A stretch of 64,000 nt of DNA, taken from positions 224 through 64,223 of the forward strand of contig CAZVWJ010000012.1 of the NCBI GenBank assembly GCA_964631325.1, written 5' to 3'. This DNA comes from an uncultured bacterium (GTDB lineage Bacteria > T1Sed10-126). Made by a program: the position numbers and the translations under genes. Shown piece after piece: positions 5,565 to 22,160 of this stretch. Positions within the stretch are counted from its first letter, which is position 1; each line of letters begins with the position of its first letter. The notes under the pieces were generated by a model. That model was given only the letters and a program-made list of their open reading frames with translations, was not told where the DNA came from and ran no database searches.

Positions 5565-8500
5565 CTTCTCAGGACGAGGTTTAGGCGCCAGAGGGGGGCG
5601 GCTTGCTCAATTGGTAGGTACCAAACGAATTTATTGATACCATCCCGGAAAAGCGGAGCCATCTCAGGCCAAATTCTTACAATCTCTTCCATTCTTTCAC
5701 CGAATCGAGAAGCTGACTCTTCTGGTTCTCCTTCAGAAATTGAGGAGGATAGTAGAGCCTCAACTATTGACTCAGCTTCACCGGTTAAATTATTGTCTTC
5801 CTTTGAAGGTAATGGCTTATCAGTTTCTTCAGAAGCCTTTTCTGCTCTTTTTTTAAGATGTTTAAATAATTTCTTTCTTAGATCTTCTTCATCTAAATAC
5901 CCTATCTGTGTGCCAAAGAATTCTAACGCCAGTCGGGAATTAATATCCTCAATCTCAAAAAGTTCATCAAAATCAAATTTTTCAATAACCTCCAGCAACT
6001 TTCCCCTTAACTCTGGATACATTGACCTATGGCCGACAATGGCATTTAACAAAGTCCACGCAATATCTTTACCTGGTTCTTCAATTACATCATTAAGAGC
6101 CTGTCTTGTATATTTTTTCATTAGATCCGACGAGACTAAAAACCCCATGTCTTCTCCAAAAGTCTCTTCGACTACATCATTTCTTGCCCGACCAAGAAAT
6201 GAATTTAAAGCATTCTCCCCAAGAGATGGGTCATTCATAAATTCAGGGTGAATCGATCTTTCATCTTCCTCTCCAACCATGAAGTTTGAAACCAATTCTT
6301 CTTCTACATCCATATCTTCTATCAGGTCAATCGGGAATTTTTCATATCTTGAAAATAAGCCCATGAATAAGAAAGTTCGCTTCTTTACTTCCCTCGGATA
6401 TGCCACATCGTTCCATAACTCAAAGTCCCGATCGAATGTAAGAAGATCAGTTTGTTCCATATTAATCCTAAAATGCTTAAAAATTTGCTCATTATTTATA
6501 CCCGAACGGAGAATAATATTCTGTAATTGAGAAGCGTGTATCCAATTCGCCAGCAAGTATTCCTCTTTGGTTAGCTGTTCGTGATATTGAAGACGGTTCA
6601 GTTCTCGATTCACCCATTTAAGCGTAATCATGAATGATTCGGTATGTAGAGAATCAGGATTCAAGAGCCCGTCTAAAATTTCCTCAGCTTTCTCCAAGGT
6701 CCAGGGATCGTCTTCTTGAAATTGCATTACCAAATTAAACAGGTGAATTAATCGAACAGCCGAAGCCCATTGATCCGATAAATTCTGCAATAAATCAACG
6801 CGATCATCCGAAGACAAGTTTTGTAATTCTTGATAGAGAGGGGCAGGAAAATGTTTTGGAAGATGTGCGAACCGATGGAATGCTTCTTCAAGACCCTCTT
6901 GATTGATTAGTTTTCGTGCTGCCTCTTCTAAAGATTCGTCTATTTCAGTAGCGTCAACTTCTTCATATCGAAGGAAATTTCTGAAAGACTCGGCTTCGGG
7001 AGGGATAAAATCTTCCCTTTTTAATGTTTGCGGCTCTGTGCTGGCCTGAGATTGTAGTTCAAAGTGGTAGAACGGAAGTGATTTCTCACGATATCTATGA
7101 ACTTGTTCCATTCGTTCTTTTAACGAATCTGCTTCTAACAACTCATCTAAGACGTCTTCAAACTCTTGCCTATCTCTATCGAACCACTCCGACCAGGTTT
7201 GTTCCAGAACATCCTCGATAACTCCTTCATCCCTCGACAAAAATCCACATTCAATACTTTCAAACGTAAATTCCTCATCTGTATCTTGATCCACAAATTT
7301 AATGCTATCGCAAAATTCATATTGGGAGTCCAATTCGTTTGGAGAAATTAAAAAAGTTTTCCGACCGGTCCTATCTTGTAACTCTACCTGTTCACTCTCT
7401 CTGTTTACTATAGTTGCGAGCGTCGGCCAAATTTCATTTGGCTTAAATTCGAATCCTGCAAACTCTATGGTTCCTTGAGGCTCTAAAGCAAGTGGATCGG
7501 CTATTCCAGCTAAATTTATATTTTTTTGAATTTTGACTGGCAAATCCCGAAAGAACCGCTGAAGTTGTGCCCGCATAGTTTTCTCTCGCGATTCATCTTC
7601 TAAATCCTCGTCTAAAAAACTAATTAAAAATTCTCGTATCGCTTCCCCCACAGAATTAATGAGAACCCCTTCGTTTAATTCTCTCGGAGCTAACATCCTA
7701 TTGTACAGCCATTGTAAATAATTTTTTCGAAATTTTGACTCCACTTGTGAATCCCCGTGAGTTATTTGAATAGCGTTGCACATAACCCTTCCTATATTTT
7801 GTCCATAAAAGACAAGATCATCCTGTTCATACTTCGTGAGTTCAAGAATTCGACGTATACCAAGCATATCAACAAACAGATTCGAAAATATCCAATTACT
7901 ATATGCTCGCTTCTCATTTTTATTTAAATTACCACTCGACCATATTTCAATTAATACAGCAGATATTTCATGAAATAGATTCATCGTATATCTTACTTCC
8001 CCCATTGAATTTTCAGCTTCAGTATCACTGGGGAATTGCAAATTGTCTTTGTCAATTTGAGTCCCACTAACGTATCGTCTTAAAACTTCAAGTTCATCTG
8101 TTCCTTCCACTGATAGCCCAAATCTATTTTCTTCAAAACTACTCTCATTAAGCCAATACAATATTTCCTCTGAATCTACGGGTAGATACCGTAAATCAGC
8201 TTCCCGCATATAAATCAAGTCACGATAGTAATGCTCTTCACTATAAAAATTATCTATCGTTGATTCAGATGATTCATCTTCTTGATACCTTTCTTCATGG
8301 CTTTGTCTTATCTTCTTTAAAACCTCTGGCATGCCGACAATTGGATTGCCCTGTATGTTCCCATGCCCACTTACATATCTATCATCAGTACAAACGACAC
8401 TCTCTTCTGAAAAATCACCGGTTAAAAGATCCACAAGTACTCTATAATTTGGTTCACGCATTTGTTCATTACTTATTTTTCCTTCCTGATCTTCGGCTAG

Positions 8501-10000
8501 TTCAAGGAACTGATACTTTTCTGGCTGATTTTCCTGAATATGATCGATCAGCGTTTCAATTTCTCCAGCCAGTGATAATCCCTGTTCGATACGCTTTAAA
8601 TTTTGTTCGATTTTCTGTTTTTCATTATTCGTAATAAAAACATTTGGGAAATACTCCAAAACCGACTCCAAAATCCCTTGTCTTTCAAGTTGTTCAATAG
8701 TGTTTCCGCCAAAGTACAAATCATCTTCAAGACTGGGAAGAACATCGTGGTCAACTTCTTCTCCATAACCACCTAAATCTTCTACCTTTGTTTCATACTC
8801 TTCTTCTGACCATTCACCAGATTCATAAATAGCTTTAAGAATTGTTTTGTTATTAACTACCAATTCTTCATATTCCCCAAGTTTGATTTCAGTCAAATTA
8901 CCATGATCATCTCTGACTGGAAGATACTCCACAATAACCCCATCTTTCTTCTTTGCTGTTTCGGCCATATGGATCCAGTCAATATCTTTAACGTCTTGAA
9001 AATCATGCCCTTCATATTCACTCTCGGAAGCATCTAAAACTTTAATTTCATCCTCTTTTATCCGCTCGGATAATCTCTCAAAATTTTCCTTTTGTATCGG
9101 TTGGTGCTTTGACTCACTTTCGGCCTGCTGTTGTAAAAATAAGATTGCAGACTTTGGCAATTTGATAGTTTCAAAGATCTGTTCGATGTGTTCAATCACT
9201 TCCAATTTCCAACCAATCAGTAAACTTGTCATATCCATCACAAATTTTTCAGTTCCTCGATCAATGAATGGATCAGTTCTGTGAGTTAAATCCCTTTGAT
9301 CGGAGGTTAATGATAGCGTTCCGTGTCGATTCATGATTGGAAAAGTCTTCCAATGGCTTTTCAATTGAGTATTTTCATCAAACACTTCCCAGAAAATATA
9401 CGGAAGGGTCGTCCCCATCGCCCCAATCCAAAAATGAAGCGGCATCTTCCCCTGATAATATCGATTCAATATTTCTCTATTTCTTTCTTTTTGCTCCTCC
9501 AGCATTTCCTTTGTTTCTTCAAGGGAGACTGCTCTTAATACATCTGGATCTTCTCCGGCGGACTCTCTCATCTTCTGAAACAGTTCCTTCATCTCATCAC
9601 TATCGTCAAGCCCCAGATTTGTACCGACCGTTACAGCACTTGCGATTAATTGAGGCGTATCAATTTCAAACTCTAAAGCTTTTTCCCAAAGTCGTTTGCT
9701 AATTACTCCCTCATCACCATCTTTTGGTAATAAATGTGCCACTCGTAGTAATAAAAAGGGATCTTCTAACTCCTGAGCTTGACCAAGCAACTCTTCACCG
9801 ATCCTGACAATTTCTTCCTCATCCCCCTTGTAAAGCAGTGATTCAATGTAAAGGTGATAATTCTGGGAGGTAGGCTTATCATCAACTAAATCTTTTGCCT
9901 CACTCTCTGCCTGATCAAAGTTACCAATTTGCAAAAGGGACTTAATTTTTACCTGCCGAAGTTGATTATCCATTTGAAGTTTATTCGTCATAGTACTCAC
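5555..10000 (-). CDS. giant hypothetical protein (1481 aa), acidic, predicted helical/TPR-like N-terminus, no catalytic motif recognised
   Basis: long uninterrupted ORF overlapping both neighbours by 10-20 nt (translational coupling); no Walker A, no nuclease/protease motif found by eye. Confidence 0.6.
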   Translation of the reverse strand: MSTMTNKLQMDNQLRQVKIKSLLQIGNFDQAESEAKDLVDDKPTSQNYHLYIESLLYKGDEEEIVRIGEELLGQAQELEDPFLLLRVAHLLPKDGDEGVISKRLWEKALEFEIDTPQLIASAVTVGTNLGLDDSDEMKELFQKMRESAGEDPDVLRAVSLEETKEMLEEQKERNREILNRYYQGKMPLHFWIGAMGTTLPYIFWEVFDENTQLKSHWKTFPIMNRHGTLSLTSDQRDLTHRTDPFIDRGTEKFVMDMTSLLIGWKLEVIEHIEQIFETIKLPKSAILFLQQQAESESKHQPIQKENFERLSERIKEDEIKVLDASESEYEGHDFQDVKDIDWIHMAETAKKKDGVIVEYLPVRDDHGNLTEIKLGEYEELVVNNKTILKAIYESGEWSEEEYETKVEDLGGYGEEVDHDVLPSLEDDLYFGGNTIEQLERQGILESVLEYFPNVFITNNEKQKIEQNLKRIEQGLSLAGEIETLIDHIQENQPEKYQFLELAEDQEGKISNEQMREPNYRVLVDLLTGDFSEESVVCTDDRYVSGHGNIQGNPIVGMPEVLKKIRQSHEERYQEDESSESTIDNFYSEEHYYRDLIYMREADLRYLPVDSEEILYWLNESSFEENRFGLSVEGTDELEVLRRYVSGTQIDKDNLQFPSDTEAENSMGEVRYTMNLFHEISAVLIEIWSSGNLNKNEKRAYSNWIFSNLFVDMLGIRRILELTKYEQDDLVFYGQNIGRVMCNAIQITHGDSQVESKFRKNYLQWLYNRMLAPRELNEGVLINSVGEAIREFLISFLDEDLEDESREKTMRAQLQRFFRDLPVKIQKNINLAGIADPLALEPQGTIEFAGFEFKPNEIWPTLATIVNRESEQVELQDRTGRKTFLISPNELDSQYEFCDSIKFVDQDTDEEFTFESIECGFLSRDEGVIEDVLEQTWSEWFDRDRQEFEDVLDELLEADSLKERMEQVHRYREKSLPFYHFELQSQASTEPQTLKREDFIPPEAESFRNFLRYEEVDATEIDESLEEAARKLINQEGLEEAFHRFAHLPKHFPAPLYQELQNLSSDDRVDLLQNLSDQWASAVRLIHLFNLVMQFQEDDPWTLEKAEEILDGLLNPDSLHTESFMITLKWVNRELNRLQYHEQLTKEEYLLANWIHASQLQNIILRSGINNEQIFKHFRINMEQTDLLTFDRDFELWNDVAYPREVKKRTFLFMGLFSRYEKFPIDLIEDMDVEEELVSNFMVGEEDERSIHPEFMNDPSLGENALNSFLGRARNDVVEETFGEDMGFLVSSDLMKKYTRQALNDVIEEPGKDIAWTLLNAIVGHRSMYPELRGKLLEVIEKFDFDELFEIEDINSRLALEFFGTQIGYLDEEDLRKKLFKHLKKRAEKASEETDKPLPSKEDNNLTGEAESIVEALLSSSISEGEPEESASRFGERMEEIVRIWPEMAPLFRDGINKFVWYLPIEQAAPLWRLNLVLRSCY

Positions 10001-12182
10001 CTAGCATTCGCAACGTCTCGCGAGGCCTCCCACTGTTAAAAGCCCCCGCCACAGCCATTCTTTTAGCGCTATCAGTCATAACCTTTTCAATCAACTTTTG
10101 TTTATGATCATAAACAAATTCCCAGTCTCCCTGCTGGGCCTTCAACTCGCATAATTCATACAAAAAATCCCCTCGCTCTGTTTCTTTATATTTGGATTCG
10201 AGATATTCTTCCAAATCCTCATACTTTTCGTCTTCATAACCTTTTCGGTGATAAGACATATTTTGAATCTGTTCAAAATAACTGAGATCTTGACATGACT
10301 GGACGGTATCTAAAGCCTTTTCATATTCTCCTTGGAGCAATAGAATTCTGGCTTTCCAATATTTCCATAATTCTTTTGAATCCCCACCAAATATTTCTTT
10401 ACTTTCTTCATGCAGCCAAATGGCATCATCTATATTCCCTCTAGATAATAAAGCAACCAATAATCCAATTACTTCATTAACCCCAGGAGAATATTTTTCA
10501 AAACGCTGAATTACTTCATTAGCGGTAAGTTGGTTAACTACATTAAAATCTCTGGCTGTCCCCCAAATAAAAGCCCCATAATGAATCGAATTTTCGGAAA
10601 GCAATTTTTCAGCGTAATTATTAGCACTTTCTGTATTGCCGGGGTCTTCCAACTCATCTAAATTTGCCTTACAGGCTAATTTCCAGACTTCTAAATCTAC
10701 TGCCTCTCTTTCATTTTCAGTTGCAATATCAATCAATTCATCAAAAGTATCCTGGGCTTCCTGAAGTCTCTCTCGAATATCTTCGTCTTTGATTAGATAA
10801 TGTCTGAAGACAGGCATGGGGGGATTTAAAGGCTGATCTGGGAGAATGACAGGAGAGAAAGCTGAATGATAATAAATTATTCCTTTAGTCCGCTGAACTT
10901 CAAAATTGTCTGGCTCCTCTTCCGCAATTTTCTCGATTTGGTCATATGCCTTTCCTAAATTTTCTTGTAATAAAAATGCTATAGCTTTTAATCGCTTGGT
11001 TTCATAATTTAAGGTGAACTCATCTTCAAATTCATCAAGGCGACTCCAAAAATCTTTGATTTCATTCATTTCCAACAAACAGGCAAGTATTAAATTACCT
11101 GCTTCTATAGTGGAGGGGTCTTCTAGTTGATTTAAAACCTTGCTAGGATTTTCTTCATGGTATAGTACTACAAATTTTTCGTATTCAGTGTTTATATCAA
11201 CCTGTAATTGATCAATTTCTTCGAAAATTTTTCTTGCTTCCGGAAAATCTTCCTCAATAGTGGCTTTTAAAACAGCTTCAATTTTTAATATTTCTGCTCT
11301 AACTTCATTATCATTTAGAAATTTTTCATTTTCTCGGAGGTTTAAAATTTGTTCATATGCACGTCGTGTCCTACCTTGTTTTAGAAGATTTTTCACCTCC
11401 TGAAGTTCTTCAAAAGTCATTTCGGTAATTCTTTCGAAAGCTTGCTCGTTAACAATATTTTTCTTTTTTAATTTTTGTTTTAAGTTTCTATCTGTATTTG
11501 GATTTTCCTCACAAATTACATTAATCCAATGATCTGCCGGTTCCAAAAAACGAGCAACTATATGAGGATGGTCCATCAATTTATCTTTTAATTCTCTAGC
11601 TGACCAAACTTCAAAATCAATTCCATGTTTTTTTAATCTTTGTATTTGGTTTTCAATTACATCATGCACTTGAGTCCGTTGGATATCACTCGCTAAAAAT
11701 AAAATAATTTTCTTAACTCGCTCAAAATCCCAATGATCTTCATTTTCTTCTAATATTCGATTCACAACATTTGTAATAAGTTTTGGTTCTACTTCTACAT
11801 GAGATTTACATTCACCTAAAATAATCTGGTCTTCTGAAGTAATTGCTTTAAGATCAACTCCAAAATCAGATTGGCCTTCTATACCATATAACTCACAAAA
11901 CTCGATATGATTCTCTTTTCTAAGAATATTTAGACAAAGTTTTTCAAATCGTTTTGGAGTCAATTGATAAAAAGGGGGGGATAAATCTAGTTTTATATTC
12001 GGGGTAATAAACTCAGCTTCATCATAAATTGGAAAATCCTCAGGATTAGATTTAGAGTTCTGAAAAACTTTACTACTTGCCTTTTTGTTATAATTTTTAT
12101 CCATTTTTTTCACCTCAGGATCACTGTTATGATCTTTTCTTTTCAATTTTTTCATTGAGTTCACTAAGCGACTCACATTCAT
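9981..12182 (-). CDS. Mrr-like PD-(D/E)xK restriction-endonuclease domain fused to C-terminal TPR/helical repeats
   Basis: N-terminal FEKLCLNILRKENHIEFCELYGIEGQSDFGVDLKAI...ILGECKSHVE matches Mrr_cat (D...E-x-K) pattern; remainder TPR-like; true start may be the internal MDKNYNKK. Confidence 0.65.
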   Translation of the reverse strand: MNVSRLVNSMKKLKRKDHNSDPEVKKMDKNYNKKASSKVFQNSKSNPEDFPIYDEAEFITPNIKLDLSPPFYQLTPKRFEKLCLNILRKENHIEFCELYGIEGQSDFGVDLKAITSEDQIILGECKSHVEVEPKLITNVVNRILEENEDHWDFERVKKIILFLASDIQRTQVHDVIENQIQRLKKHGIDFEVWSARELKDKLMDHPHIVARFLEPADHWINVICEENPNTDRNLKQKLKKKNIVNEQAFERITEMTFEELQEVKNLLKQGRTRRAYEQILNLRENEKFLNDNEVRAEILKIEAVLKATIEEDFPEARKIFEEIDQLQVDINTEYEKFVVLYHEENPSKVLNQLEDPSTIEAGNLILACLLEMNEIKDFWSRLDEFEDEFTLNYETKRLKAIAFLLQENLGKAYDQIEKIAEEEPDNFEVQRTKGIIYYHSAFSPVILPDQPLNPPMPVFRHYLIKDEDIRERLQEAQDTFDELIDIATENEREAVDLEVWKLACKANLDELEDPGNTESANNYAEKLLSENSIHYGAFIWGTARDFNVVNQLTANEVIQRFEKYSPGVNEVIGLLVALLSRGNIDDAIWLHEESKEIFGGDSKELWKYWKARILLLQGEYEKALDTVQSCQDLSYFEQIQNMSYHRKGYEDEKYEDLEEYLESKYKETERGDFLYELCELKAQQGDWEFVYDHKQKLIEKVMTDSAKRMAVAGAFNSGRPRETLRMLGEYYDE

Positions 12183-12564
12183 CAGCCAATTGTTTTAATT
12201 CTTCCCAATCTGTATCTTGAACAGTCTCTTCTGTATCACTTGGATTTGAATCCGGGGTATTATCTGGAGCGAAATTCTGTCTTAGTTCTTCCCCAAACCA
12301 ATTCTCGGTAAATAAAAAAATATTTACTTGGGGTGTATCTTTTCCATCGCTTTTTAAAAAAGGTATAGAACTCCAATCTAAACGAGCTTTCCCAACTTTA
12401 CATAACCAGAAAATTAAGCAAAAAACTAATAAATGAATAAATAAATGTGAAAACCAACGAATATTGTATCCTTCTGGATAAACAAGATCGCTATAGTAAA
12501 ACCTCACCTCATCAATAAATCGAGGTAAACCAAATTGCTTATACTTAATCGTATTGATCCTCAA
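12127..12564 (-). CDS. small membrane protein (one TM helix, acidic tail)
   Basis: 145-aa ORF with hydrophobic segment HLFIHLLVFCLIFWLC; overlaps MTase stop by 20 nt and next gene start. Confidence 0.35.
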   Translation of the reverse strand: MRINTIKYKQFGLPRFIDEVRFYYSDLVYPEGYNIRWFSHLFIHLLVFCLIFWLCKVGKARLDWSSIPFLKSDGKDTPQVNIFLFTENWFGEELRQNFAPDNTPDSNPSDTEETVQDTDWEELKQLADECESLSELNEKIEKKRS

Positions 12565-15500
12565 TTATTTGAATTTCTTCATTTGTGAGTCCATATAGCT
12601 CATAAACTATCCGATCAATTTCTTGGTCGGTTTCTTCGATTTTTTTCTCAATGTTTAATTTTTCGGAGTCCGATGTTACTTGAGTAAGACTTCCATGTAA
12701 ACTGAGCATCCTATCGGCTTTTTCGGCGATTTGATCGCGCAGTTCAACTTCAGTTGAGTTCGATTCATCGATTTGTTTGATGGGGAGTTGCTCCATGTAT
12801 TGGTAGATATAGCGAAGATATCCGCCTCGGTAAGATGAACAGATGTTTTCGTAATAAAAGGCAAGTAGTTTCGAGTTGAGTAAACCCAGTAAATAAGGAT
12901 CGTCACTGGATATTATGTAAGCCGTGTTTACACAATAATAATTGCCATCTCGATCCAGTGTGAAGTTACCCCTTTCAGCAATATCTGGAACTATTAATTT
13001 GGGCTTTTCAAATTCATCGTAATAATCGCAGGCTCGAAGTTCCCACCAGTATTCTCCTTGATCGTATCGTTCCCGAGCTCTTTCCTCATATTGACTCAGG
13101 TATCCGGTAATAGCTGGATACTGTTGCTTCAACCATTGCCATTCATCCGCGTCTTTTGGAGCATTTTCATTAGTCCAACCGTTGGGGAAGAAAATTAGAT
13201 AATGTTCTGGTGACAAGGATGCATATCGCTTGATATCGCGGCCCTTCAAAAATGGTTTAAGCCGTTCATCGCTGGCTGGGTTTTTATCAATTAATTCCTG
13301 ATACTTAGCCGAGTCAATTACAAAGGCTTTGTTCAATCCTGTTTTAATCCCGTAGTGAATTCCACCATTTACGACTTTTTTTAAAGGCTTGGACTGATCC
13401 CTTACTTTACGAAGCAAATCTTGAGTTTCTTTACCTACAAGTGTCCAACTTCCTCCCGTTAGGAATTCCTTATTCATAGGAAATGAATCTTCCCGGAAGA
13501 GAACAGATAAATCTCCGAGAATATCGTCTTGTTCATTGGCAACGTCGAGGGCGGTGAATTCACCATTAAAAGAAGTCGGAGACATCATCAGAATACAGGG
13601 GTAAGTCGTGGCGGTATCGAAAACTGTATAATCGCCGAAATTGATCAGTTTTCGAATCGGTTGGTCATCGAGCCAACTGCGAAGATTCTTTCCGTATTTG
13701 GCTCGCATCCATTTGTTGGACACAATGTAGCAGAAGGTCCCCTCCTGGTTCAATAACTTGTAACCACGTTCGATGAAATAAGTGTAGAAATCCGCGGTGC
13801 CATAATAAGTTTCATAATGATTCTTAAAATATTCTTTCTGTTCTCCCAAGTCCTCCTGTCTGACGTAGGGCGGATTAGCGATAACTACATCAAACCCGTT
13901 ATTTTCCAGGAAGACTTCGGTGAAGTAGAGTTCCCAGAGGAAGAACGGGCGACGGCGGGACTGTTTTATTTCTTCGAGTTCTTTTAGTTTTTCTTCTTCG
14001 TCGTGTTCCTCCAGGGTGGCTTCAATGAGTTCCCAGTGTAGCTCTTCAATTTCTTCGCGTAATTCTCGTTTTTCGCTCTTGCGGACGGCATCCGCGAATT
14101 CTTTTTGAAGTTGATCCAATTCTTCTGCCTTTTTACGGGCCTCACTGTGGCGCTGGAAGAGGTCAGGGGTTCCATGCTGGTTTTGTTGTTCACTCTCTAA
14201 ATTTCCTATTTCTTTTTTTATCTTTTCCAATTCATTGTCCAAACGTTTCTGTTCGGCTGATGGAAGATTACCGGACTGGTGGCGGTCTATATATTGTTTT
14301 TCAAGGGACCGTTGTTTCTCTTTTAATTCTCGGCGGCGGGCTTCGGTATCGGCTTGCCGGTCACGGATAAGTTCGGAGTCAAACAGTTCAATCCCCTCGT
14401 ATTCCTCGACCAGCGAGTCGCCCTGCATAATTCGGTACTCGAGGTTGGGTAGGGGTTTAATCTCTTCATAGTCTTCCTCATCAACGACCAGGGAGAGCCA
14501 GAGGCGGAGCTTGGCGATATCAACGGAACTGGGATCAATATCAACGCCGTAGAGATTATGTAAAATAGCGTGGCGCTTGAGCTCATACTGGCTGCGATCT
14601 TCACCGGAATCAAGATAGGGAGTGAGCAGGCGGCGCAGTTTGACGATCTCCTGCATCAGGCCGACCGGGAAGGCGCCGGAACCGATTGCCGGGTCGCAGA
14701 CTTTAATCTCGGCAAGTAGCGCGTCAATTTTGTTGACCCGCTCACGGATAGAATCGGGAATTTTTTGTTGGCGTTCGGCAAGATCACCTTCCGCAACGGC
14801 CGCTTCGTGTTGAAGCAGAAGATCACCGTGTTCAACGACTAATCTTATGTCCGCTTCAGGAATGTCCCCCCCATCTGTATCTTCCCCCACCGGGGGGGAA
14901 GAGCTTTCACCCTCACCCCGGCCCTCTTCCATCGAGGGAGAGGGAGTTTGGTCCCCCTCATCCGCCCTGCGGGCACCTTCTCCCACCGGGGGAGAAGAAT
15001 CACCCCCATCTTGCTCTTCCCCCATCGAGGGGGAAGAGCTTTCACCCCCACCTGTGTCCTCCCCCGTCGAGGGGGAGGAGATGTTTTTGCTATCTGGGGA
15101 GAGATTATTTTTATTGTTCAAATGTGTGGAGAGGTAATTGACCAGGCTTTCCTGGCACATGTAGTGGACTATTTCGCGGGGGGTGTAGAAAGCGCCCTTT
15201 GATTTGCGGTCCTCGACGTCAAGCATGCGCTCGTAGACCTTGCCCAGCATCTCGGGATCAACGGCGACTTCTTTTTCCAGCGGTTCATCCTCGCGGATGG
15301 TGAAGTTGTAGCGGTCGAAGGTGTCAAAAATCTCGGCGAAGAGTTCGTCGGGGAGGGTGAGTTCAGTCTCGTCCCAGGCGTAGTTATTTATCGGTTCAAA
15401 TAAACCGCCGTTTAAAAAGGGAATGCGGCACTCCAGTTTTGAATCCATGGCGCCCCGGCCGCGGTCGACGGCAAGCGAGTTGTAGAACAGGTGTTCGAGC

Positions 15501-16402
15501 ACGTCGTTGTAAAAATTGTCGTAAGCACAGTATTCGCCCGCAAAGAGCCGGCGGAGAAAATCTTTCGGACCGGTGCCCCACTCGTGGAAAGAGCCGGAAG
15601 CATCGCGTTCGACGCCCAGCCAGCCTTTTTTCTGAATAAAATAGAGGAAGACAATCTGGCCGAGGAGCTTCTTGGCAAAACTGGTCGGGGTAATATCCTT
15701 CTTGTCAAACTCCGCCCGGATTTTATCGTCCGCCGTTAATACCTCTTCGGTGGCCTCTTTGGCTTCCAGGAACAGCTCCCGGTATTGCTCGAAGAACTCG
15801 TCGGAAACCGGTTCAACGCTAAAGGCTTCTTCAAGTTCAGCCAGGCTGGGTTTGCTCTCCTGATCAAGAACCCGGGCGAGCTGTTTCTGGGCCGTATGAT
15901 TTGGTTCGTTGGCCCCGACAAGATAGGAAAAGCGCTTGGCCGGCGATAGCTCCCGCCGGGGCCGGGTCTTCCCGGCCTCAGTTTCCTGGAGGCTGTAGTC
16001 AACCTTGACCAGGGAAAACCGCCAGTCGGGGTGGCCCTCGGTGTGAAAGGCAACCAGCGCCCCGTCCTTCTGATAGCCCCGGCTGTCCCGCAGATACCAG
16101 CCAACAAAATTACGCTGGGCGGTGCGGGCGCGGCGCAGGTTGGAAACCTGGTTGAGATGGACAACCAGCACATGGATGTATTTACCGTTTGGTTCGTCGT
16201 ATTTTCCGAGGCGGCGGTAGGACTTGACGTATTTTTTGTAGGCTTCGGGGATGTTGTAGCCGGACATACTTTTCTGGGCTTCCTCGGAATCATCAAAATC
16301 GCGCTGGAGGAGGTTATTGATAAAGTTATGGTAGCGGGCCTCGTCAAACGGTTGGTCGAAGGTGTTTTTAATAACGTTTTTCGTGGCTTCCTGAACAGTC
16401 AT
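12545..16402 (-). CDS. gamma-class N6-adenine DNA methyltransferase, PglX / Type IIG (Eco57I-MmeI)-like, with TaqI-C-like target recognition region and internal acidic tandem-repeat linker
   Basis: motif I VCDPAIGSGAFP; motif IV DVVIANPPYV; C-terminal GIHYGIKTGLNKAFVI typical of TaqI_C-type TRD; 1285 aa; repeat SPS/PVGE-D/E-GG-ESS inserted upstream of the MTase core. Confidence 0.8.
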   Translation of the reverse strand: MTVQEATKNVIKNTFDQPFDEARYHNFINNLLQRDFDDSEEAQKSMSGYNIPEAYKKYVKSYRRLGKYDEPNGKYIHVLVVHLNQVSNLRRARTAQRNFVGWYLRDSRGYQKDGALVAFHTEGHPDWRFSLVKVDYSLQETEAGKTRPRRELSPAKRFSYLVGANEPNHTAQKQLARVLDQESKPSLAELEEAFSVEPVSDEFFEQYRELFLEAKEATEEVLTADDKIRAEFDKKDITPTSFAKKLLGQIVFLYFIQKKGWLGVERDASGSFHEWGTGPKDFLRRLFAGEYCAYDNFYNDVLEHLFYNSLAVDRGRGAMDSKLECRIPFLNGGLFEPINNYAWDETELTLPDELFAEIFDTFDRYNFTIREDEPLEKEVAVDPEMLGKVYERMLDVEDRKSKGAFYTPREIVHYMCQESLVNYLSTHLNNKNNLSPDSKNISSPSTGEDTGGGESSSPSMGEEQDGGDSSPPVGEGARRADEGDQTPSPSMEEGRGEGESSSPPVGEDTDGGDIPEADIRLVVEHGDLLLQHEAAVAEGDLAERQQKIPDSIRERVNKIDALLAEIKVCDPAIGSGAFPVGLMQEIVKLRRLLTPYLDSGEDRSQYELKRHAILHNLYGVDIDPSSVDIAKLRLWLSLVVDEEDYEEIKPLPNLEYRIMQGDSLVEEYEGIELFDSELIRDRQADTEARRRELKEKQRSLEKQYIDRHQSGNLPSAEQKRLDNELEKIKKEIGNLESEQQNQHGTPDLFQRHSEARKKAEELDQLQKEFADAVRKSEKRELREEIEELHWELIEATLEEHDEEEKLKELEEIKQSRRRPFFLWELYFTEVFLENNGFDVVIANPPYVRQEDLGEQKEYFKNHYETYYGTADFYTYFIERGYKLLNQEGTFCYIVSNKWMRAKYGKNLRSWLDDQPIRKLINFGDYTVFDTATTYPCILMMSPTSFNGEFTALDVANEQDDILGDLSVLFREDSFPMNKEFLTGGSWTLVGKETQDLLRKVRDQSKPLKKVVNGGIHYGIKTGLNKAFVIDSAKYQELIDKNPASDERLKPFLKGRDIKRYASLSPEHYLIFFPNGWTNENAPKDADEWQWLKQQYPAITGYLSQYEERARERYDQGEYWWELRACDYYDEFEKPKLIVPDIAERGNFTLDRDGNYYCVNTAYIISSDDPYLLGLLNSKLLAFYYENICSSYRGGYLRYIYQYMEQLPIKQIDESNSTEVELRDQIAEKADRMLSLHGSLTQVTSDSEKLNIEKKIEETDQEIDRIVYELYGLTNEEIQIIEDQYD
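14860..15085. repeat. intragenic imperfect tandem repeat (encodes SPSxGE(D/E)xxGG(E/D)SS units) with C7 and G7 homopolymer tracts
   Basis: repeated tcttcccccatcgagggggaagagctttcaccc-like units visible in the sequence; tgtccccccc and caccggggggg tracts. Confidence 0.7.
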
Positions 16403-16454
16403 GTGAAACTCCTCAAAACCATTATTGGACAGGATTTACAGGATAAACAAGATC

Positions 16455-16540
16455 TTAATTTAACGCAAAGGCGCAGAGGCGCAAAGAAGTATCTCCGTGG
16501 GGACGGAGGTTGATTATTGATTAACTTTTTTAGCTCGCGG
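16455..16540. repeat. dispersed intergenic repeat cluster (aacgcaaaggcgcagaggcgcaaag + ggggacggaggttgattattgattaacttttttagctcgc)
   Basis: same motifs recur at ~21980-22155, 28329-28354, 28707-28750 and partially at 25558-25600. Confidence 0.75.
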
Positions 16541-16658
16541 GTGGGCGCTGATTAGAGATTAACTCCTCTGCACTATTGCGCGATTATACAAATTTTGCGT
16601 CCGAGCCTGCTGAAGTTTTTTTCGGAGACAATCATTCATTAGATTCTCAAACATGTAA

Positions 16659-16900
16659 TCAGTCAAGCTGAAGTTCCCAGTGCCCCTCTTTTCTGCCGCC
16701 AATACGTTCTAATACATCCTTTTCTCTCAATTTCCTGATATTTTTCTGCACAGCTCGCTGACTTATTCCTATATCTTCAGCAAGTTCCGAAATCGTTGTT
16801 TCTTTATTTTGTCCAATCAATCCCAGAATTTTCTTCTCACTTTTCCCGAATCTTTCCCCGTTAAGTACCCTGGCATGTATTCCATCAAGTATCCTGTATC
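16659..16900 (-). pseudogene. 3'-terminal winged-helix fragment of an AlbA_2-family gene (no start codon, upstream in-frame stop)
   Basis: translates to ..GKSEKKILGLIGQNKETTISELAEDIGISQRAVQKNIRKLREKDVLERIGGRKEGHWELQLD*, aligning with the C-terminus of the 505-aa AlbA_2 protein at 25693-27210; stop and 3' flank (~85 bp) are identical to that gene. Confidence 0.55.
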
Positions 16901-16930
16901 AATGTTTCAGTCAATATCCAGCTCACCTTT

Positions 16931-16978
16931 TACTGTGACATTACTGTGACATTACTATGACATTTACTATGACATTAT
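16931..16978. repeat. 11-bp tandem repeat x4 (tactgtgacat / tactatgacat)
   Basis: directly visible immediately 3' of the AlbA_2 gene stop (16987). Confidence 0.7.
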
Positions 16979-16986
16979 GTTCAAAA

Positions 16987-18402
16987 TTAGTTTGGAAATT
17001 GATAAAACGCAGTTGGGTCAGTTTCCGATTCTGCCTTTCTTTCCAAAACACCTTTTTCCTGTAAACTTGTTAGTTTTCTATTCACAGTTCGCTTTACTTT
17101 CCCTATCAACTCAACGGCTTCCTTAGTGGTTATTTTTTGATTTTTTTGGATGTAATTAACAATTTTTTGCTCATCCTCATCAAGATCAACCTCATTTATC
17201 CCGTCATTTATCCCGTCATCCTTCTTTGTCGGTTTCAGTGGAATAATGGTCTTAAAAATGTCATCCTCAATTAATTTCGGGGTGGCCCCGGAAGTATAGA
17301 TTCCACAGTATTTAAAGGTATTGCGGACGCCGGAACCAAGCTCATCAGCACGTCCAATCTCCTTGAAAAAACTGGCAATCACCGGGTTCTTGGGATAGGG
17401 CGAGAAATTATCCGGGTTGATTTCCCCCACGTTGCGGGTGCGGTTGGCGTTCTCCGTCAGAACTCTGTCTTCCTCAATGATCAACTTAGCTGGATAGGGA
17501 TTCGTGTATTCCCGGTGAATCAACAGGTTCCCGATGACTTCGTGAAAAATAAGATCACGGACGCTTATTCGTTGATCGCCTTCGTTGTAGTATTTATCGG
17601 GAAGATGCTTTTTCACGAAGGCCATGAGCCGATCGTAACTTTCAATTAAATTCGTCCGCACGTCATCTCTGTCGTCGTAGCGATCCTTATTTTCAACCCG
17701 CTTGATCGCATCCGTCCGGTGATGTGGACACACGTCCCGAATAACCTCGTCCTTTCCCAGCAACAGAACGGCTGCCAACGTATACCCGGATTTGTTTGAC
17801 TGGCGGTCCTCCCGGTAAAGACCGGCTGAACGAAGAAGCTCCCGGTCCTCCAATTCCAGCCACGGATGGTTCTTACGTTCACTACGGGCAAGCTTCCGTA
17901 TTCGCTCAAACAGATCGTTTTTGAAATCGCCCATTTCTACAAACGGGTAAATCTCGTTCTCCGTGTAGGTCGACTGCTTGCGCCTGTAAAGCTTACTTAC
18001 CTGCTCAGGCTGGTCCGTTATATCCAGATCCCCGTCCTCATTACGGTCATAGATTTCCCCACATGTCCGGTGGACCTGTGAGCTTTCCGGCACGAAAGTG
18101 TGGAGGACGTGCTTTCCCTCGTATTCAATGGTCTCCGGGGACAAATAAAATGGCGGATTGAGTTTTTGTGAATTGTTGGCATTGTTCACGATGCTGTTAA
18201 TGACATCCTGAACACATTGTTCCAAAACGCCCACTACTTCCTTGTCGTCATTGATTCCCAGGAACAGGTGACCTCCGTTGCGGTTAAGGAAGGCACAAAT
18301 CGTTTCAAAGGCGTTCTCATTGAGTTTCGAGCGGGATTCCTTGAACTCAACCTCAATTCCCTCGCCCGCCTGGAGATATTGCTCGAGTTCTTCCGGTTCC
18401 AT
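16987..18402 (-). CDS. AlbA_2 (Schlafen-like divergent AAA/putative DNA-binding) domain protein with HATPase_c_4-like and C-terminal wHTH regions
   Basis: N-terminal VEFKESRSKLNENAFETICAFLNRNGGHLFLGINDDKEVVGV matches AlbA_2 pattern; C-terminal HTH; abuts helicase gene (stop 18403 / start 18402). Confidence 0.7.
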   Translation of the reverse strand: MEPEELEQYLQAGEGIEVEFKESRSKLNENAFETICAFLNRNGGHLFLGINDDKEVVGVLEQCVQDVINSIVNNANNSQKLNPPFYLSPETIEYEGKHVLHTFVPESSQVHRTCGEIYDRNEDGDLDITDQPEQVSKLYRRKQSTYTENEIYPFVEMGDFKNDLFERIRKLARSERKNHPWLELEDRELLRSAGLYREDRQSNKSGYTLAAVLLLGKDEVIRDVCPHHRTDAIKRVENKDRYDDRDDVRTNLIESYDRLMAFVKKHLPDKYYNEGDQRISVRDLIFHEVIGNLLIHREYTNPYPAKLIIEEDRVLTENANRTRNVGEINPDNFSPYPKNPVIASFFKEIGRADELGSGVRNTFKYCGIYTSGATPKLIEDDIFKTIIPLKPTKKDDGINDGINEVDLDEDEQKIVNYIQKNQKITTKEAVELIGKVKRTVNRKLTSLQEKGVLERKAESETDPTAFYQFPN

Positions 18403-21400
18403 TTAATCCGCCCCCCGTTGCCCGGAATTTTCAGCGTTAACCAAATACTCGGAGAGGATTATTTCCCGGGGCTGATCCTCCCGGCTACTGCCCGGGGACT
18501 CCTTTTCCAGCAGGCCGTCCGGGATGTGACAGCGGAGAACTTCTAAAATTTTTAGGGGATTGCCGGTTGGATTATCAAGCGACTCCAATTTCTGTTTTAT
18601 TTTCCGGGTTGTCTGCCGGGCCGGACGCGCCCCCTGGACAAGATCTATTACCGAGCGAATGTATTGTTGATCGGATTCAGTAAATTTATCGTGGTTTTCC
18701 ACCGCCTGTAGATACTGGACGATGAACTGTTCATTTGTTTGCCCGCCCTGGCGCGAATGTTCAACTTCTTCCTGAAAAAGCTCCTTGAACTGCTGTTTGT
18801 TCTGATTTAATTTTGAATAATAATCGTCCGGCAAATCAAGCCGCTCGGTGCCCTGTTCACATTCCATCAGCGTGGCCGCCCTGTAAAAAGGAAGCGCCTG
18901 GGCCCCGTCCTCTTCGCAGAGGTAGAAACTCTTAACATTCCCCTTGCGAAAAAAGGACAGCAGGCCGGAAGCGGAATTGTCGCCGGTTATTTCTCGAGCT
19001 GTGCGGGCTTTCTTCGGCAACTTCTTGAGCCGGTCAAATAACTCCGGGTTTTGATCACGAACCTCGCGGATTTTGGCCAGGTAATCAAGTTCCGGCGAGG
19101 CTTGATCGCCGCCCTTCTCGTAGGTCTCGGGATCATTGAGCTTCTCATACAACTGTTCCCCGAAAAAACTGTGCGTGGTAACTTCCTCCGCTTCCGTCAG
19201 ATATTTGGCGTCCTCGCCGAGGATATCGTGGAAGGATTGCAGTTTACTGGTCACAATTGCCTCAAGGTTCAAATGTTCCTCCGCCTGGCTGGTCGGGAAG
19301 AAATTAAAAATGTGGATCTCTTCAAAAGGGGTGCCAATACGATTGACGCGGCCTGAACGCTGAAGAACCTTGGTCGGATTCCAGGGTAAATCGTAATTTA
19401 CAATTAAATTCGACTGGTGCAGATTAATTCCCTCGGAGAGAACATCAGTGGTGACAAGGAAACGGATTTCGTCCGCTCCGTTTTCCGGTTCAATACCGGG
19501 ATCAAAATTCTCCCGAATCCTGTCCCGGGCCACCCGCTTGCCCACGGTAGCACCCTGGTAAAGTCTTCGGCTGCTGGAATAAAACATCACCCGGTCCGGG
19601 TAACGCTCGTTAAGCTCCTCGTATAAATACTCCCCCGTCTCCGCGGACTCGGTAAAAATTACAGCAGGACTTTTAGAAAATAGCTCGTTTGATTCAATCT
19701 CTTCCAGCAAACTCTCCAGCTTGGGATCAGTGGTGACATTATTCCAGAGGTGTTTGATTTTCCGGAGAAGCTGGAGATCTTTATTAATGTCAGCAATGAA
19801 ATTATCCGAGAATTTTTCCGCCGCCCAGCGCTTGGCCTTATCCTCCTCAACCAGCTCCAGGAGCCGGGCTTCATTGTCTGCTTCCGCCGAATCCCAGAGT
19901 TCATTTATATTCACGTCTTTACTTACGTAGACTGCTCCCGATTCATACATATCAACAAAATTTTCGTAGGACTCAATAAACCGGCCGAGAGTATTCTTGA
20001 ACGCCAGAAAGCTGCTCTCAAGTCTTTTCACAATTAAACTTTTCATAAACCCCCGAATATTTCGCTGGGACTGCTTCTCGAACTCTTCGACCGGTTCTTC
20101 CAGGTATAAGAGGGGCACATAACGGGCATAGTCCATTTCCTTCAACAACTGAATTGTTTCCTCGAAAACTTCCTCGGTTCCGGAATCAAAATTATATAAG
20201 AGCCGGTGGGGAGGCTTGACCTCGGGGAACTGCACGCCCCGCTTTTCCAGGTCTTCCTTGTAATGTTTTTCCACGTCGGAGCGGGTCCGGCGAATCATTA
20301 CATACTTGAGAATCTTTTCCCTGACCTCTTCGGCCACTTCATCCAGGACATCCTGGTAGCCGGGATCATCGGGGTCGTAATTGCGTTTGCGTTTTTCCAA
20401 TCCTTTGAAAAATTTATGGAGATTTTTGACCCCGGGAATGGTGCTCTGCTTGGGCTCCTGGAATAACTTCAACTGCCGGTAAATATCCTGTTCCGTGTTA
20501 TTGAATGGTGTGGCGGTGACAAGGATAACATCTTTGCCCCAGCAAATCTCCAGCAATTTTTCGTATTTTTCCGTCTGTTCATTACGGAAGCGGTGCGCTT
20601 CATCAACAAGGATTGTGCTGTATTTATCGGGGTTGTTTCTGAGAACGTGATGGAGCTTACCGTGGGACTGGACTTTATAACCCCGGACGCCAAATTCCCG
20701 GAAAGTATCTTCCCAGTAATCCTCCAGCACAGGAGGACAGAGGATTAGTTTCTGCCCTTTCATTTTCTGTGCTAAGAGAGCGGCAATAAAAGTTTTACCC
20801 AAACCGACCACGTCGGCGATAAAAACTCCGCCATATTCATTTAGGATTCTTTGGGCCTGGGCAACCGCCTGTTTCTGATACTCAAGGTCGATGTAGCCCG
20901 GCGGCAGATAATCATCAAAGTCGCGGTCAAGATTGATTTCTTCCTCAAAATATTCGTATAAAAATTTGAGGTACAGCTCATAAGGAGTGATTTCATCATT
21001 CAACCAGGTCTTTCGCGGAATTTGCTCGACAAATTTTTCTGTTATTTCCGTGGATTCCTTCCAGAGCTGTTCAAACTGGTCCTCGGCAAAACGGACGTCC
21101 TCTCTATTTTTAAGCTCCACGTTAAATTCCCGCCGGCCAACCAGACCGGACTCGGAGAAATTGCTGGAACCGGTTATTACCCGACCATAATCCCGGTCAG
21201 CTTCGGAAAAACGGCTGATATAAACCTTGGCGTGGATATCTTCAGAGGGATAGACTCGGAGTTTCAATTTGCCGGACTGAAGCCAGTTGATAAAGGTCCG
21301 GATTCCCGTTTCAACTTCAGGTGCGTCCTCGGAAAGCTCCAGTTCTTGTTGGACCTGCTGTAAATACTGTTCTTCGGCCTGGGTAAAGTTCTCCATATCA

Positions 21401-21648
21401 AGTTTTCGCTGGGCCGACTGATAATGTTCAAAAGTCTTTTGGCCCACGTTGATTCCAACTAAAATATGAATTTCCTCGACGGACTCCAGGTGTTCGTAAA
21501 GGCGATGGAAACCGGAAAGACGAAAATAGCCGACGAGGACATCAAAAGTTCTGGCGTCGGGGAGTGTACTTACAAAGCGATCCAGCAGAGAGGAATGTTC
21601 CTGGTTGGTGAAGAAGGTCAGGTCAGTATCGGTTTCTGAACCGTTCAC
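18403..21648 (-). CDS. PLD-family nuclease domain fused to SNF2-family (DEAH) helicase
   Basis: HxK PLD motif DIHAKVYISRF...GSSNFSESGL; helicase motif I GLGKT, motif II VDEAHRFRN, C-terminal helicase motifs (QRSGRVNRIG); 1081 aa. Confidence 0.8.
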   Translation of the reverse strand: MNGSETDTDLTFFTNQEHSSLLDRFVSTLPDARTFDVLVGYFRLSGFHRLYEHLESVEEIHILVGINVGQKTFEHYQSAQRKLDMENFTQAEEQYLQQVQQELELSEDAPEVETGIRTFINWLQSGKLKLRVYPSEDIHAKVYISRFSEADRDYGRVITGSSNFSESGLVGRREFNVELKNREDVRFAEDQFEQLWKESTEITEKFVEQIPRKTWLNDEITPYELYLKFLYEYFEEEINLDRDFDDYLPPGYIDLEYQKQAVAQAQRILNEYGGVFIADVVGLGKTFIAALLAQKMKGQKLILCPPVLEDYWEDTFREFGVRGYKVQSHGKLHHVLRNNPDKYSTILVDEAHRFRNEQTEKYEKLLEICWGKDVILVTATPFNNTEQDIYRQLKLFQEPKQSTIPGVKNLHKFFKGLEKRKRNYDPDDPGYQDVLDEVAEEVREKILKYVMIRRTRSDVEKHYKEDLEKRGVQFPEVKPPHRLLYNFDSGTEEVFEETIQLLKEMDYARYVPLLYLEEPVEEFEKQSQRNIRGFMKSLIVKRLESSFLAFKNTLGRFIESYENFVDMYESGAVYVSKDVNINELWDSAEADNEARLLELVEEDKAKRWAAEKFSDNFIADINKDLQLLRKIKHLWNNVTTDPKLESLLEEIESNELFSKSPAVIFTESAETGEYLYEELNERYPDRVMFYSSSRRLYQGATVGKRVARDRIRENFDPGIEPENGADEIRFLVTTDVLSEGINLHQSNLIVNYDLPWNPTKVLQRSGRVNRIGTPFEEIHIFNFFPTSQAEEHLNLEAIVTSKLQSFHDILGEDAKYLTEAEEVTTHSFFGEQLYEKLNDPETYEKGGDQASPELDYLAKIREVRDQNPELFDRLKKLPKKARTAREITGDNSASGLLSFFRKGNVKSFYLCEEDGAQALPFYRAATLMECEQGTERLDLPDDYYSKLNQNKQQFKELFQEEVEHSRQGGQTNEQFIVQYLQAVENHDKFTESDQQYIRSVIDLVQGARPARQTTRKIKQKLESLDNPTGNPLKILEVLRCHIPDGLLEKESPGSSREDQPREIILSEYLVNAENSGQRGAD

Positions 21649-21733: not shown

Positions 21734-22160
21734 AAAAGCTAAATCGAGGATTCTGTCACGGTAAATCAATCTTACCTGATTTTTGGGGGAATTTTAATTA
21801 TTTTTATTGAGGGACAAAGGGGAGCGTGATGGGGGGACCGTCGCAGAGGCGACATAGCGCAGAGGCGGAGAGGCGAAAGAGCATTAAACCTCGTGATGAG
21901 GGAAAATCAAAGGCAACGGCAAAGTCAAAATGGATTGCCGGGTCAAGCCCGGCAATGACGTCGTTGTATGGATTTCCGTGGGGACGGAGGTTGATTATTG
22001 ATTAATTCTTTTAGCTCGCAGATTAGCGCAGAAAGTGCGGATTTATTATTTTTGTAAATCAAGTTCAAAACCTTCGGATCCTCAGATTAGTGGGATTACA
22101 CGGATTGAAGTTCAAATTCAAAGGCAAGATAACGCAAAGGCGCAGAGGCGCAAAGGAAAT
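21734..22160. repeat. composite intergenic repeat block (several repeat families, hairpin ccgggtcaagcccgg)
   Basis: 21734-21810 recurs at 27408-27482; 21860-21960 recurs at 28550-28644; 21980-22020 and 22131-22155 recur at 16461-16536 and 28329-28750. Confidence 0.75.

Follow-up and report, generated by a model that had tools for sequence, protein, structure and literature searches.

A probable two-protein, ATP-dependent restriction-modification-like unit formed by a PLD-Swi2/Snf2 helicase-nuclease and an MmeI-like adenine methylase

The 64,000-nucleotide stretch of contig CAZVWJ010000012.1 analysed here (referred to as the window) comes from an uncultured bacterium, and carries two large genes on its minus strand. 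One encodes a 1081-aa helicase-nuclease, in which a phospholipase D-type (PLD, or HKD) domain is fused to a Swi2/Snf2 ATPase (18403-21648), and the other a 1285-aa gamma-class N6-adenine methylase of MmeI-like (Type IIL/IIG-like) architecture (12545-16402). The two genes probably constitute a self-contained ATP-dependent restriction-modification (RM)-like unit, with the helicase as the predicted ATP-dependent restriction subunit and the methylase as the predicted specificity and modification subunit. The original prediction for this DNA had proposed that an RM-like system other than DISARM or BREX is present, self being marked by the methylase and restriction carried out by the PLD-helicase; that proposal is supported by the conserved synteny, by translational coupling and co-evolution of the two genes, and by their intact catalytic motifs. 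From sequence comparison, the module is best described as a minimal variant of the defences that combine a SNF2 helicase with a PglX-like methylase, its effector being closest to that of MANTIS and its methylase architecture closest to MmeI.

The pairing of the two genes is conserved. Among 80 genomic loci that were fetched, 28 are orthologous (37-49% helicase identity), and 26 of these reach past the helicase gene and are informative. A homolog of the methylase N-terminus lies downstream of the helicase gene in 26 of 26 informative loci, in every case as a separate open reading frame (ORF), and the gap between the two is mostly -28 to +12 nt. Four loci (L014, L019, L024 and L028) depart from this by an intervening gene, a wider spacing or a methylase in pieces: L028 carries an ORF6N gene between helicase and methylase, an insertion resembling that of the window, L014 has a gap of ~500 nt and a methylase in two ORFs, and the methylase is split in L024 as well. 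The hosts include Bacteroidota, Acidobacteriota, Clostridia, Bacilli, Alpha-, Gamma- and Deltaproteobacteria, Melainabacteria, Peregrinibacteria (candidate-phyla-radiation bacteria) and one Woesearchaeote. More distant PLD-helicases (25-34% identity) have a 1090-1460-aa Eco57I-family methylase directly adjacent, either upstream or downstream, and the adjacent pair is also present on Haloferax volcanii pHV4 (HVO_A0079 and a PLD protein), a Thermus oshimai plasmid, a Parabacteroides plasmid and a Prevotella nigrescens replicon. The pairing of helicase and methylase is far beyond chance. A conserved third gene is lacking: what comes after the methylase varies between loci, with examples including ABC/AAA ATPase, AlbA_2, pentapeptide-repeat, ORF6N and RhuM-like genes. 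The window shows the features of the proposed two-gene family, namely an adjacent pair, the family-specific N-terminal domain of the methylase and the lack of a conserved third gene, though the pair is split here by an accessory gene. The helicase family is very large, with more than 7500 matches; across many phyla its orthologs share ~50% identity and measure 1056-1098 aa, with ~1065-1080 aa given for full-length ones; the N-terminal domain of the methylase is found in 5696 cluster representatives at E<=1e-3 and in 1338 at E<=1e-30.

Comparison of pairwise identities across the 26 systems reveals that helicase identity follows the identity of methylase residues 1-428 (Pearson r=0.88; 0.86 among close orthologs) and, less closely, that of residues 526-690 (r=0.73). 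This is in contrast to the target recognition domain (TRD, residues 961-1285), for which r=0.19 and the mean identity is 0.20. The difference between r=0.88 and r=0.19 indicates that helicase and methylase N-terminal half are passed on and evolve together, whereas the specificity domain is swapped freely.

Profile scans with Pfam, PADLOC models and NCBIfam covered the core genes and their flanks (downstream, p145, p733, p1481 and a KAP NTPase; upstream, TrkA/K+ channel genes, a second AlbA_2-type gene and SbcC/SbcD). The helicase contains a single HKD/PLD nuclease domain (residues ~30-200, 21049-21561; Pfam PLDc_2 at residues 108-196, and RE_NgoFVII), followed by a Swi2/Snf2 ATPase core (residues ~250-810, 19219-20901; SNF2-rel_dom, Helicase_C and a weak, partial match to ResIII). 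Its C-terminal region of ~270 aa (residues 811-1081, 18406-19218) is composed of beta-sheet and helical domains in an AlphaFold2 (AF2) model, and Pfam detects no domain in it and no DUF3427/SRA-like reader. In a comparison of 21 orthologs, H139-x-K141 and G160-S-S-N163 (GSxN) of the PLD domain are invariant, as are GxGKT (Walker A), DEAH and QRxGR of the helicase. Because HKD and GSxN are invariant while the nuclease-like motif of the methylase is degenerate, the PLD domain is, judged by its residues, the conserved nuclease of the pair; the PLD-helicase is the likely nuclease in the window also because the nuclease-like fold of the methylase lacks catalytic residues there. As each chain has one HKD motif, the helicase would act as a dimer with one shared PLD active site, by analogy with BfiI and MtsD.

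The best PADLOC match of the helicase is ‘C3a139 HKD+Snf2’ (7e-58), followed by DrmD (1e-41), and the BrxHII and HmaA models match as well. It lies below the cut-off for all NCBIfam models, scoring 179 versus 1100 bits for phospholipD_antiphage (NF042964), and 147 bits (cut-off 610) and 96 bits (cut-off 950) for the DrmD models. By homology in PADLOC and NCBIfam, the helicase is thus related to the Gao_RL/MANTIS effector and to DrmD. The full-length AF2 model is of moderate quality (pLDDT 70), and Foldseek places its ATPase among Swi2/Snf2 proteins, with RapA, CSB and Chd1 at the top (E 1e-12 to 1e-13) and ISWI after them. RapA is the best overall PDB match (~1070-1150 alignment columns), and SauUSI is not among the top 50 Foldseek matches. 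The placement next to RapA agrees with the description of BREX-related (BR) helicases as RapA-like Swi2/Snf2 proteins, of which the ‘Type-2 BR’ subtype has an N-terminal HKD nuclease. A sequence search of the PDB with the helicase returned the generic SNF2 C-lobe only, and no close relative of either helicase or methylase was found in the PDB by sequence; the copy of the PDB that was searched showed no MtsD structure.

The methylase begins with a restriction-endonuclease-like fold that is catalytically degenerate (residues ~55-165, 15908-16240) and a helical domain common to MmeI, PglX and HsdM (residues ~170-428, 15119-15895). These are followed by a low-complexity insert rich in Ser, Pro, Gly and Glu (residues 429-525, 14828-15118), a catalytic core comprising motif I, a ~140-aa coiled-coil insert and NPPY (residues 526-960, 13523-14827), and a TaqI_C-type TRD (residues 961-1285, 12548-13522). 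Pfam identifies Eco57I (E 7e-47), TaqI_C (E 1e-18) and MmeI_Mtase; positions 1-171 of the Eco57I profile are stretched over residues 615-928. Motif I (DPAIGSGAF), motif IV (NPPY) and the C-terminal TRD come in the order of the gamma class. The PADLOC REase_MTase_IIG model matches the methylase with E 6e-235 (781 bits), DrmMI of PADLOC with E 3e-47 (159 bits), and the PglX models of NCBIfam reach 77-95 bits with cut-offs of 400-900. Because the Type IIG model matches so strongly, automated tools would label the methylase a Type IIG RM encoded by one gene, and the helicase would remain without assignment.

The sole PD-(D/E)xK-like arrangement in the N-terminal fold of the methylases is E90...D126...E135-x-K137. 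This E-D-E-K pattern is intact in 3 of 25 partner methylases (L002, L004 and L021), variously substituted in the others and wholly lost in the distant clades, and the window methylase has R-D-D-S at these positions (R90, S137). The invariant residues of the nuclease-like region, Y68, R93, R97, N98, W127, R128, S130 and R157, are more in keeping with a surface for binding than with catalysis. HVO_A0079-type ‘Type IIG’ proteins have been described as being without recognisable N-terminal nuclease similarity (Ouellette et al.).

Two features of the window methylase bear on its history. The low-complexity insert of ~97 aa, which derives partly from a 42-nt tandem repeat (15000-15080), is unique to this methylase, ~25 of its 97 positions aligning to the orthologs examined. 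The GC content falls sharply near 14350 (residue ~685), from 0.51-0.62 to 0.38-0.47, and the break matches a drop in conservation after residue ~690. Its coincidence with the boundary between the co-evolving and variable parts suggests that the C-terminal half was replaced through recombination. A TRD shufflon or silent cassette as in Prevotella was rejected, as the window contains no second copy of the C-terminal part of the methylase and no significant inverted repeats. Short methylase homologs, considered as split genes or assembly breaks, were dismissed too: the top word-indexed matches are all <=745 aa, yet an exhaustive search returns mostly 1030-1300 aa, which identifies the short matches as a prefilter artefact.

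A mechanism can be outlined from these features. The methylase would read a short asymmetric site by its single TRD and methylate one adenine on one strand, thereby marking host DNA, since it resembles MmeI, PglX and MtsC in possessing one gamma-class catalytic core and one TRD at the C-terminus. Its N-terminal part, consisting of the dead nuclease-like fold and the MmeI/HsdM-like helical domain, may be the docking or coupling surface for the helicase because it is this part that co-evolves with it. A PLD-Swi2/Snf2 dimer would be recruited to unmethylated sites held by the methylase, where the motor would hydrolyse ATP and move along the DNA and the single PLD site would cut. In Type III and Type ISP systems the logic of hemimethylation favours inverted site pairs, and by analogy with these and with MANTIS, cleavage by the window system would most likely be favoured by paired unmodified sites in inverted orientation.

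Scans with all three profile collections found no match to PglZ, BrxC, DrmA, DrmB/DUF1998, DUF499 or DUF3780 in the flanking genes, and DUF499, DUF3780, PglZ, BrxC, DrmA and DrmB are likewise missing from the scanned neighbours of the related loci. The original prediction had regarded the DrmA/DrmB core as absent and PglZ and BrxC as not evident, which the scans confirm, the 1481-aa and KAP proteins included; the sole DrmA match (PADLOC) falls on the generic helicase portion of the PLD-SNF2 protein. As these components are missing, the pair is, by its gene content, not MANTIS/BR-type-2, BREX or DISARM, yet it has their SNF2 and PglX-like core. The earlier exclusion of DISARM and BREX therefore stands; the closest characterised relative, however, is MANTIS/Gao_RL/BREX-related type 2, which had not been considered.

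BREX-related systems are defined by three components, a DUF499 ATPase together with an N6-methylase and a Swi2/Snf2 helicase, to which type 2 adds DUF3780 and an HKD-helicase (Rakesh and Krishnan, NAR 2026). MANTIS, the new name of Gao_RL, hemimethylates 6-bp asymmetric sites, and MtsA and MtsB load and activate its methylase (Shaw et al., bioRxiv 2026). Restriction by MANTIS requires all four proteins and is strongest on inverted site pairs, and MtsD forms dimers that have a single PLD site each (Shaw et al., bioRxiv 2026). Experimentally, MANTIS is a defence that is directed by a methylase, dependent on a PLD-helicase and hemimethylating. Like the window, MANTIS (Gao_RL / Gao_29; BREX-related Type-2; MtsA-MtsB-MtsC-MtsD) has an effector in which an N-terminal HKD/PLD domain is fused to a superfamily 2 (SF2) ATPase of Swi2/Snf2 type, and an N6-adenine methylase that gives specificity; the same logic would be expected of both, in which short asymmetric sites are hemimethylated and DNA without the modification is restricted at the expense of ATP. 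In contrast to the window and related loci, MANTIS requires the DUF499 AAA+ ATPase MtsA and the small MtsB to load and activate the methylase. A counterpart of MtsB, named DUF3780 in one source and DUF3870 in another, was sought in p145 (12127-12564), the only small ORF in the operon, which has no Pfam, PADLOC or NCBIfam match; the third genes of orthologous loci are mutually unrelated. By its NF042964 score the window helicase is a homolog, not an equivalog, of the MtsD-type effector. Unlike that of MANTIS, the window methylase has a long MmeI-like N-terminal extension and fits Type IIG models over PglX/BR methylases.

DISARM class 1 (DrmD, DrmMI, DrmA/DrmB/DrmC) resembles the window in pairing a SNF2 helicase with an adjoining large adenine methylase and in having a PLD nuclease among its components. 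Nevertheless, DrmA (YprA helicase) and DrmB (DUF1998) are missing in the window, DrmD and DrmMI are not matched at equivalog level, and the PLD domain is fused to SNF2 in the window, whereas that of DISARM is the separate DrmC. BREX type 3 (BrxHII and PglXI), Hma/BR type 1 and ARMADA (ArmA and ArmB) share the core of a RapA-like Swi2/Snf2 protein and a PglX-like methylase, but they lack the N-terminal PLD domain and require BrxC/PglZ, DUF499 or YprA helicase, none of which is present in the window.

MmeI-family Type IIL/IIG enzymes, like the window methylase, join a gamma-class methylase and a C-terminal TRD in a single chain. They carry an active N-terminal PD-(D/E)xK nuclease, the triad of which is not conserved in most methylases of the pair, that of the window included, and they have no linked helicase-nuclease, whereas the window methylase has an obligately linked separate one. 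Type III (Mod/Res) and Type ISP (LlaGI/LlaBIII) systems show the same division of labour, in which the methylase or TRD reads an asymmetric site and an SF2 ATPase-nuclease spends ATP for long-range communication. Type III combines a beta-class Mod with a Res bearing a C-terminal PD-(D/E)xK nuclease, in contrast to the gamma-class Eco57I methylase and the N-terminal PLD domain on Swi2/Snf2 of the window; Type ISP joins an Mrr-type nuclease, helicase, methylase and TRD in one chain, in contrast to two ORFs and a PLD nuclease. A plain Type III/ISP-like RM, raised in the original prediction as what might replace its proposal, is accordingly not what the genes encode, the methylase being gamma-class, the nuclease PLD rather than PD-(D/E)xK or Mrr, and the ORFs two. 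SauUSI, a Type IV enzyme that has served as the structural reference for MtsD, shares with the window helicase an N-terminal PLD domain followed by an SF2 ATPase, and acts as a dimer with one PLD site. It attacks modified DNA by means of a C-terminal DUF3427/SRA-like reader and has no partner methylase, whereas the window helicase's C-terminal region appears RapA-like and has no such reader.

A broader proposal is offered more tentatively, and we hold it to be possible rather than probable: the pair may represent a distinct, very widespread two-protein class of ATP-dependent RM, in which a PLD-Swi2/Snf2 motor-nuclease works with an MmeI-like hemimethylating methylase that uses a dead nuclease fold as adaptor. 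Such a class would do without an AAA+ loader what MANTIS does with four genes, and might be the minimal core from which BREX type 3, DISARM class 1, BR/Hma and ARMADA were assembled. If so, it would be the simplest system for reconstituting restriction by a PLD-helicase, an aim not yet achieved with MtsD. Defences built on a SNF2 helicase and a PglX-like methylase (BREX, DISARM, Hma/BR, ARMADA and MANTIS) are studied intensely while their restriction step is poorly understood, and a two-gene version with a fused PLD nuclease and no loader ATPase is the simplest member of the group and would lend itself to studying the way in which a methylase guides a motor-nuclease. The pair occurs in thousands of genomes of bacteria and archaea, where databases and tools divide it into a single-gene Type IIG enzyme and an unannotated ‘helicase-related protein’; its recognition would mend many annotations and explain REBASE ‘Type IIG’ entries without a nuclease motif. 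Interest in the pair would rise if the two-protein mechanism were confirmed experimentally.

The adjacency of helicase and methylase has already been noticed in passing, and the pair is unnamed and uncharacterised in the literature searched. Milman et al. list, among programmed-inversion loci, a Type II RM coding sequence adjoining one for a protein with phospholipase D and SNF domains. Johnston et al. describe an upstream SNF2/RAD54 helicase at the Pin17FIII locus of Prevotella intermedia, and report that Pin17FIII alone, expressed in E. coli, produces N6-methyladenine (m6A) at asymmetric GGYGAB. The P. nigrescens locus (L086, NZ_CP082843.1, 379667-388187) comprises an HTH gene, PLD-SNF2, the methylase and an inverted partial Eco57I/TRD cassette, the same layout as described for P. 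intermedia Pin17FIII, and the N-terminus of its methylase is 39% identical to that of the window (E 2e-61). The inverted cassette of L086 and the split methylases of L014 and L024 are consistent with the programmed inversions reported in PMC9881135. As Pin17FIII methylates when expressed alone, it suggests that methylases of the two-gene family need no loader ATPase.

Several points weigh against the RM-like reading. No paper naming the two-gene pair or testing it as a restriction system was found in the searchable literature, and we infer the membership of Pin17FIII in the family from the locus layout in a sister species, not from the Pin17FIII sequence. The nuclease activity of the related MtsD was not reconstituted in vitro (Shaw et al., bioRxiv 2026). 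The relative HVO_A0079 of Haloferax volcanii was reported without detectable methylation; its PLD partner on pHV4 (L082) is truncated to 777 aa, has no Helicase_C and abuts an IS4 transposase, which may be relevant to the missing methylation. The methylases of the orthologs that keep E-D-E-K might cut DNA by themselves. In the window, 2 kb of DNA separates the two genes and a terminator-like hairpin precedes the methylase; a search upstream of the methylase gave no sigma-70-like promoter, which is uninformative as the promoter type of the host may differ; on these grounds co-expression of helicase and methylase in the window is uncertain.

The intervening segment is made up of three elements. 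The first is a Schlafen/AlbA_2 gene (16987-18402, minus strand) encoding 471 aa with SLFN_AlbA_2, a weak HATPase_c_4 and a winged helix-turn-helix (wHTH) according to Pfam; its ATG abuts the stop codon of the helicase (TAAATG). The second is a 53-aa ORF (16659-16820, minus strand), the relic of a wHTH C-terminus from another AlbA_2-type gene, which resembles the C-terminus of the AlbA_2-type protein encoded at 25693-27210. The third is one copy of a 61-nt repeat (16491-16551, ~90 nt upstream of the methylase start), which contains the hairpin CTCCGTccccACGGAG and has its second window copy upstream of the helicase gene (21972-22032; 87% identity); the hairpin is terminator-like on both strands in a scan for such structures. 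The helicase, AlbA_2 and methylase ORFs all lie on the minus strand with exactly the coordinates first noted (1081, 471 and 1285 aa), ORF and Pfam scans recovered every ORF and domain of the original prediction, and the gene fragment it had placed between helicase and methylase is real, being the 53-aa relic. Its inclusion of the AlbA_2 gene within the module does not hold: the gene is absent from this position in orthologous loci, and was inserted between genes that normally abut. In L004, L009, L012 and the Parabacteroides plasmid the pair has AlbA_2-type genes beside it, and a Schlafen-type RNase with a minimal histidine-kinase-like ATPase and wHTH is reported to be a common accessory of BREX and BR loci, occurring in at least 1017 taxa. 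The inserted gene is therefore read, from its domains and position, as a back-up or regulatory accessory and not as a core part. The 61-nt repeat may mark the recombination that brought in the AlbA_2 segment, and accessory gene, relic and terminator-like repeat together may have uncoupled methylase transcription from the helicase.

It follows that the module could be decoupled or decaying in this genome, with the methylase an orphan, possibly regulatory, and the helicase translationally coupled to the AlbA_2 gene, silent or newly paired. The 2-kb insertion with its hairpin, the AlbA_2 start codon abutting the helicase, the GC break within the methylase gene, which suggests past recombination, and the unique 97-aa insert all speak for such a state. 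Both core ORFs are nevertheless intact despite the insertion, at full length and with all catalytic motifs; L028 has a comparable inserted ORF6N gene, AlbA_2 genes accompany intact pairs elsewhere, and a PLD-helicase active against unmethylated sites would still need its methylase. We regard decoupling as unlikely, although it is the most serious of the alternatives to a working RM-like unit.

A less likely explanation is that two independent neighbours are seen, namely a complete single-chain Type IIG/IIL methylase-nuclease and a stand-alone PLD-SNF2 defence nuclease, for example a modification-dependent Type IV enzyme like SauUSI. The strong PADLOC Type IIG match (E 6e-235), the Type IIG label that REBASE-derived literature gives to relatives of the methylase, the REase-like fold of its N-terminal domain and the E-D-E-K pattern kept in three orthologs are in line with it, and PLD-SF2 proteins like SauUSI do work alone. 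Independence is difficult to reconcile with the strict, often overlapping adjacency in 26 of 26 loci and in distant clades, and with the co-evolution of the helicase with the methylase N-terminus (r=0.88). Moreover, the nuclease-like motif is gone in most members and in the window methylase, the helicase has no modified-base reader such as DUF3427, and a Type IV enzyme fixed beside an active adenine methylase would risk self-cleavage.

Two further explanations are very improbable, and to about the same degree. The pair shares with MANTIS/BR type 2, DISARM class 1 and BREX type 3 their core of SNF2-helicase and PglX-like-methylase, and the helicase matches DrmD, BrxHII, HmaA and HKD+Snf2 models, so that it might be a remnant of such a system which lost the ATPase and other core genes and is non-functional alone; but none of the 26 orthologous loci, nor the scanned distant ones, has DUF499, DUF3780, PglZ, BrxC, DrmA or DrmB, and the very large size of the family on the helicase and methylase sides, together with the conserved catalytic motifs and the missing larger-system genes, argues for selection on the pair itself. 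The PLD-SNF2 protein might instead be a remodeller that aids methylase access in epigenetic regulation, its PLD domain binding DNA without cutting, as its closest structural and sequence matches are Swi2/Snf2 proteins such as RapA and DDM1 and as MANTIS methylation needs an ATPase; against this, neither the catalytic His and Lys of HKD nor the GSxN motif varies, the related Pin17FIII was able to methylate DNA on its own, and the systems lie in defence-island-like, horizontally mobile contexts with insertion sequence (IS) elements, AlbA_2 and TIR genes. As an RM-like unit, the window module is an ordinary member of its family, and its unusual feature is the inserted Schlafen-type accessory gene.

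The original prediction had also considered joint action with the KAP operon downstream. This link is rejected because tblastn of p145, p733, p1481 and the KAP protein found no homolog in the 80 related loci and because the GC content of the KAP block is much lower (0.30-0.38, versus 0.45-0.55 in the PLD-helicase/methylase module). The low-GC block (2661-12564, minus strand) comprises these four genes, and its products include proteins of 733 aa (weak Mrr_cat, TPR) and 1481 aa (HTH_upst_double_PIN) and a KAP NTPase of 967 aa (QatA-like, far below cut-off). The block has the appearance of a candidate defence module in its own right, gained by horizontal transfer.

On the other side of the pair, a second Schlafen/AlbA_2 - HATPase_c_4 - wHTH gene (25693-27210) encodes 505 aa and is ~20% identical to the first, and an SbcC/SbcD pair lies further upstream (the spans noted for these genes are 25693-27210 and 29478-33090). 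Runs of the octamers CGCAAAGG/CGCAGAGG occur upstream of both core genes, with a similar run at 28331 (spans 16461-16551, 21847-22032, 22130-22155 and 28331-28348). Among the fetched loci, that of Clostridium guangxiense (L027) encodes at 17564-21064, ~850 nt downstream of the pair, a 1166-aa protein matching RNA-dependent RNA polymerase (PF05183). A match on an E. coli plasmid (H25) was set aside as a different system, composed of SNF2, DUF4391, a site-specific DNA methyltransferase and a DEAD/DEAH-box helicase, which looks Type III-like. No ORF in the remaining 28 kb of the window exceeds 612 aa, and a strong plus-strand AT skew (+0.33 to +0.37) extends over five minus-strand ORFs at 40000-47000.

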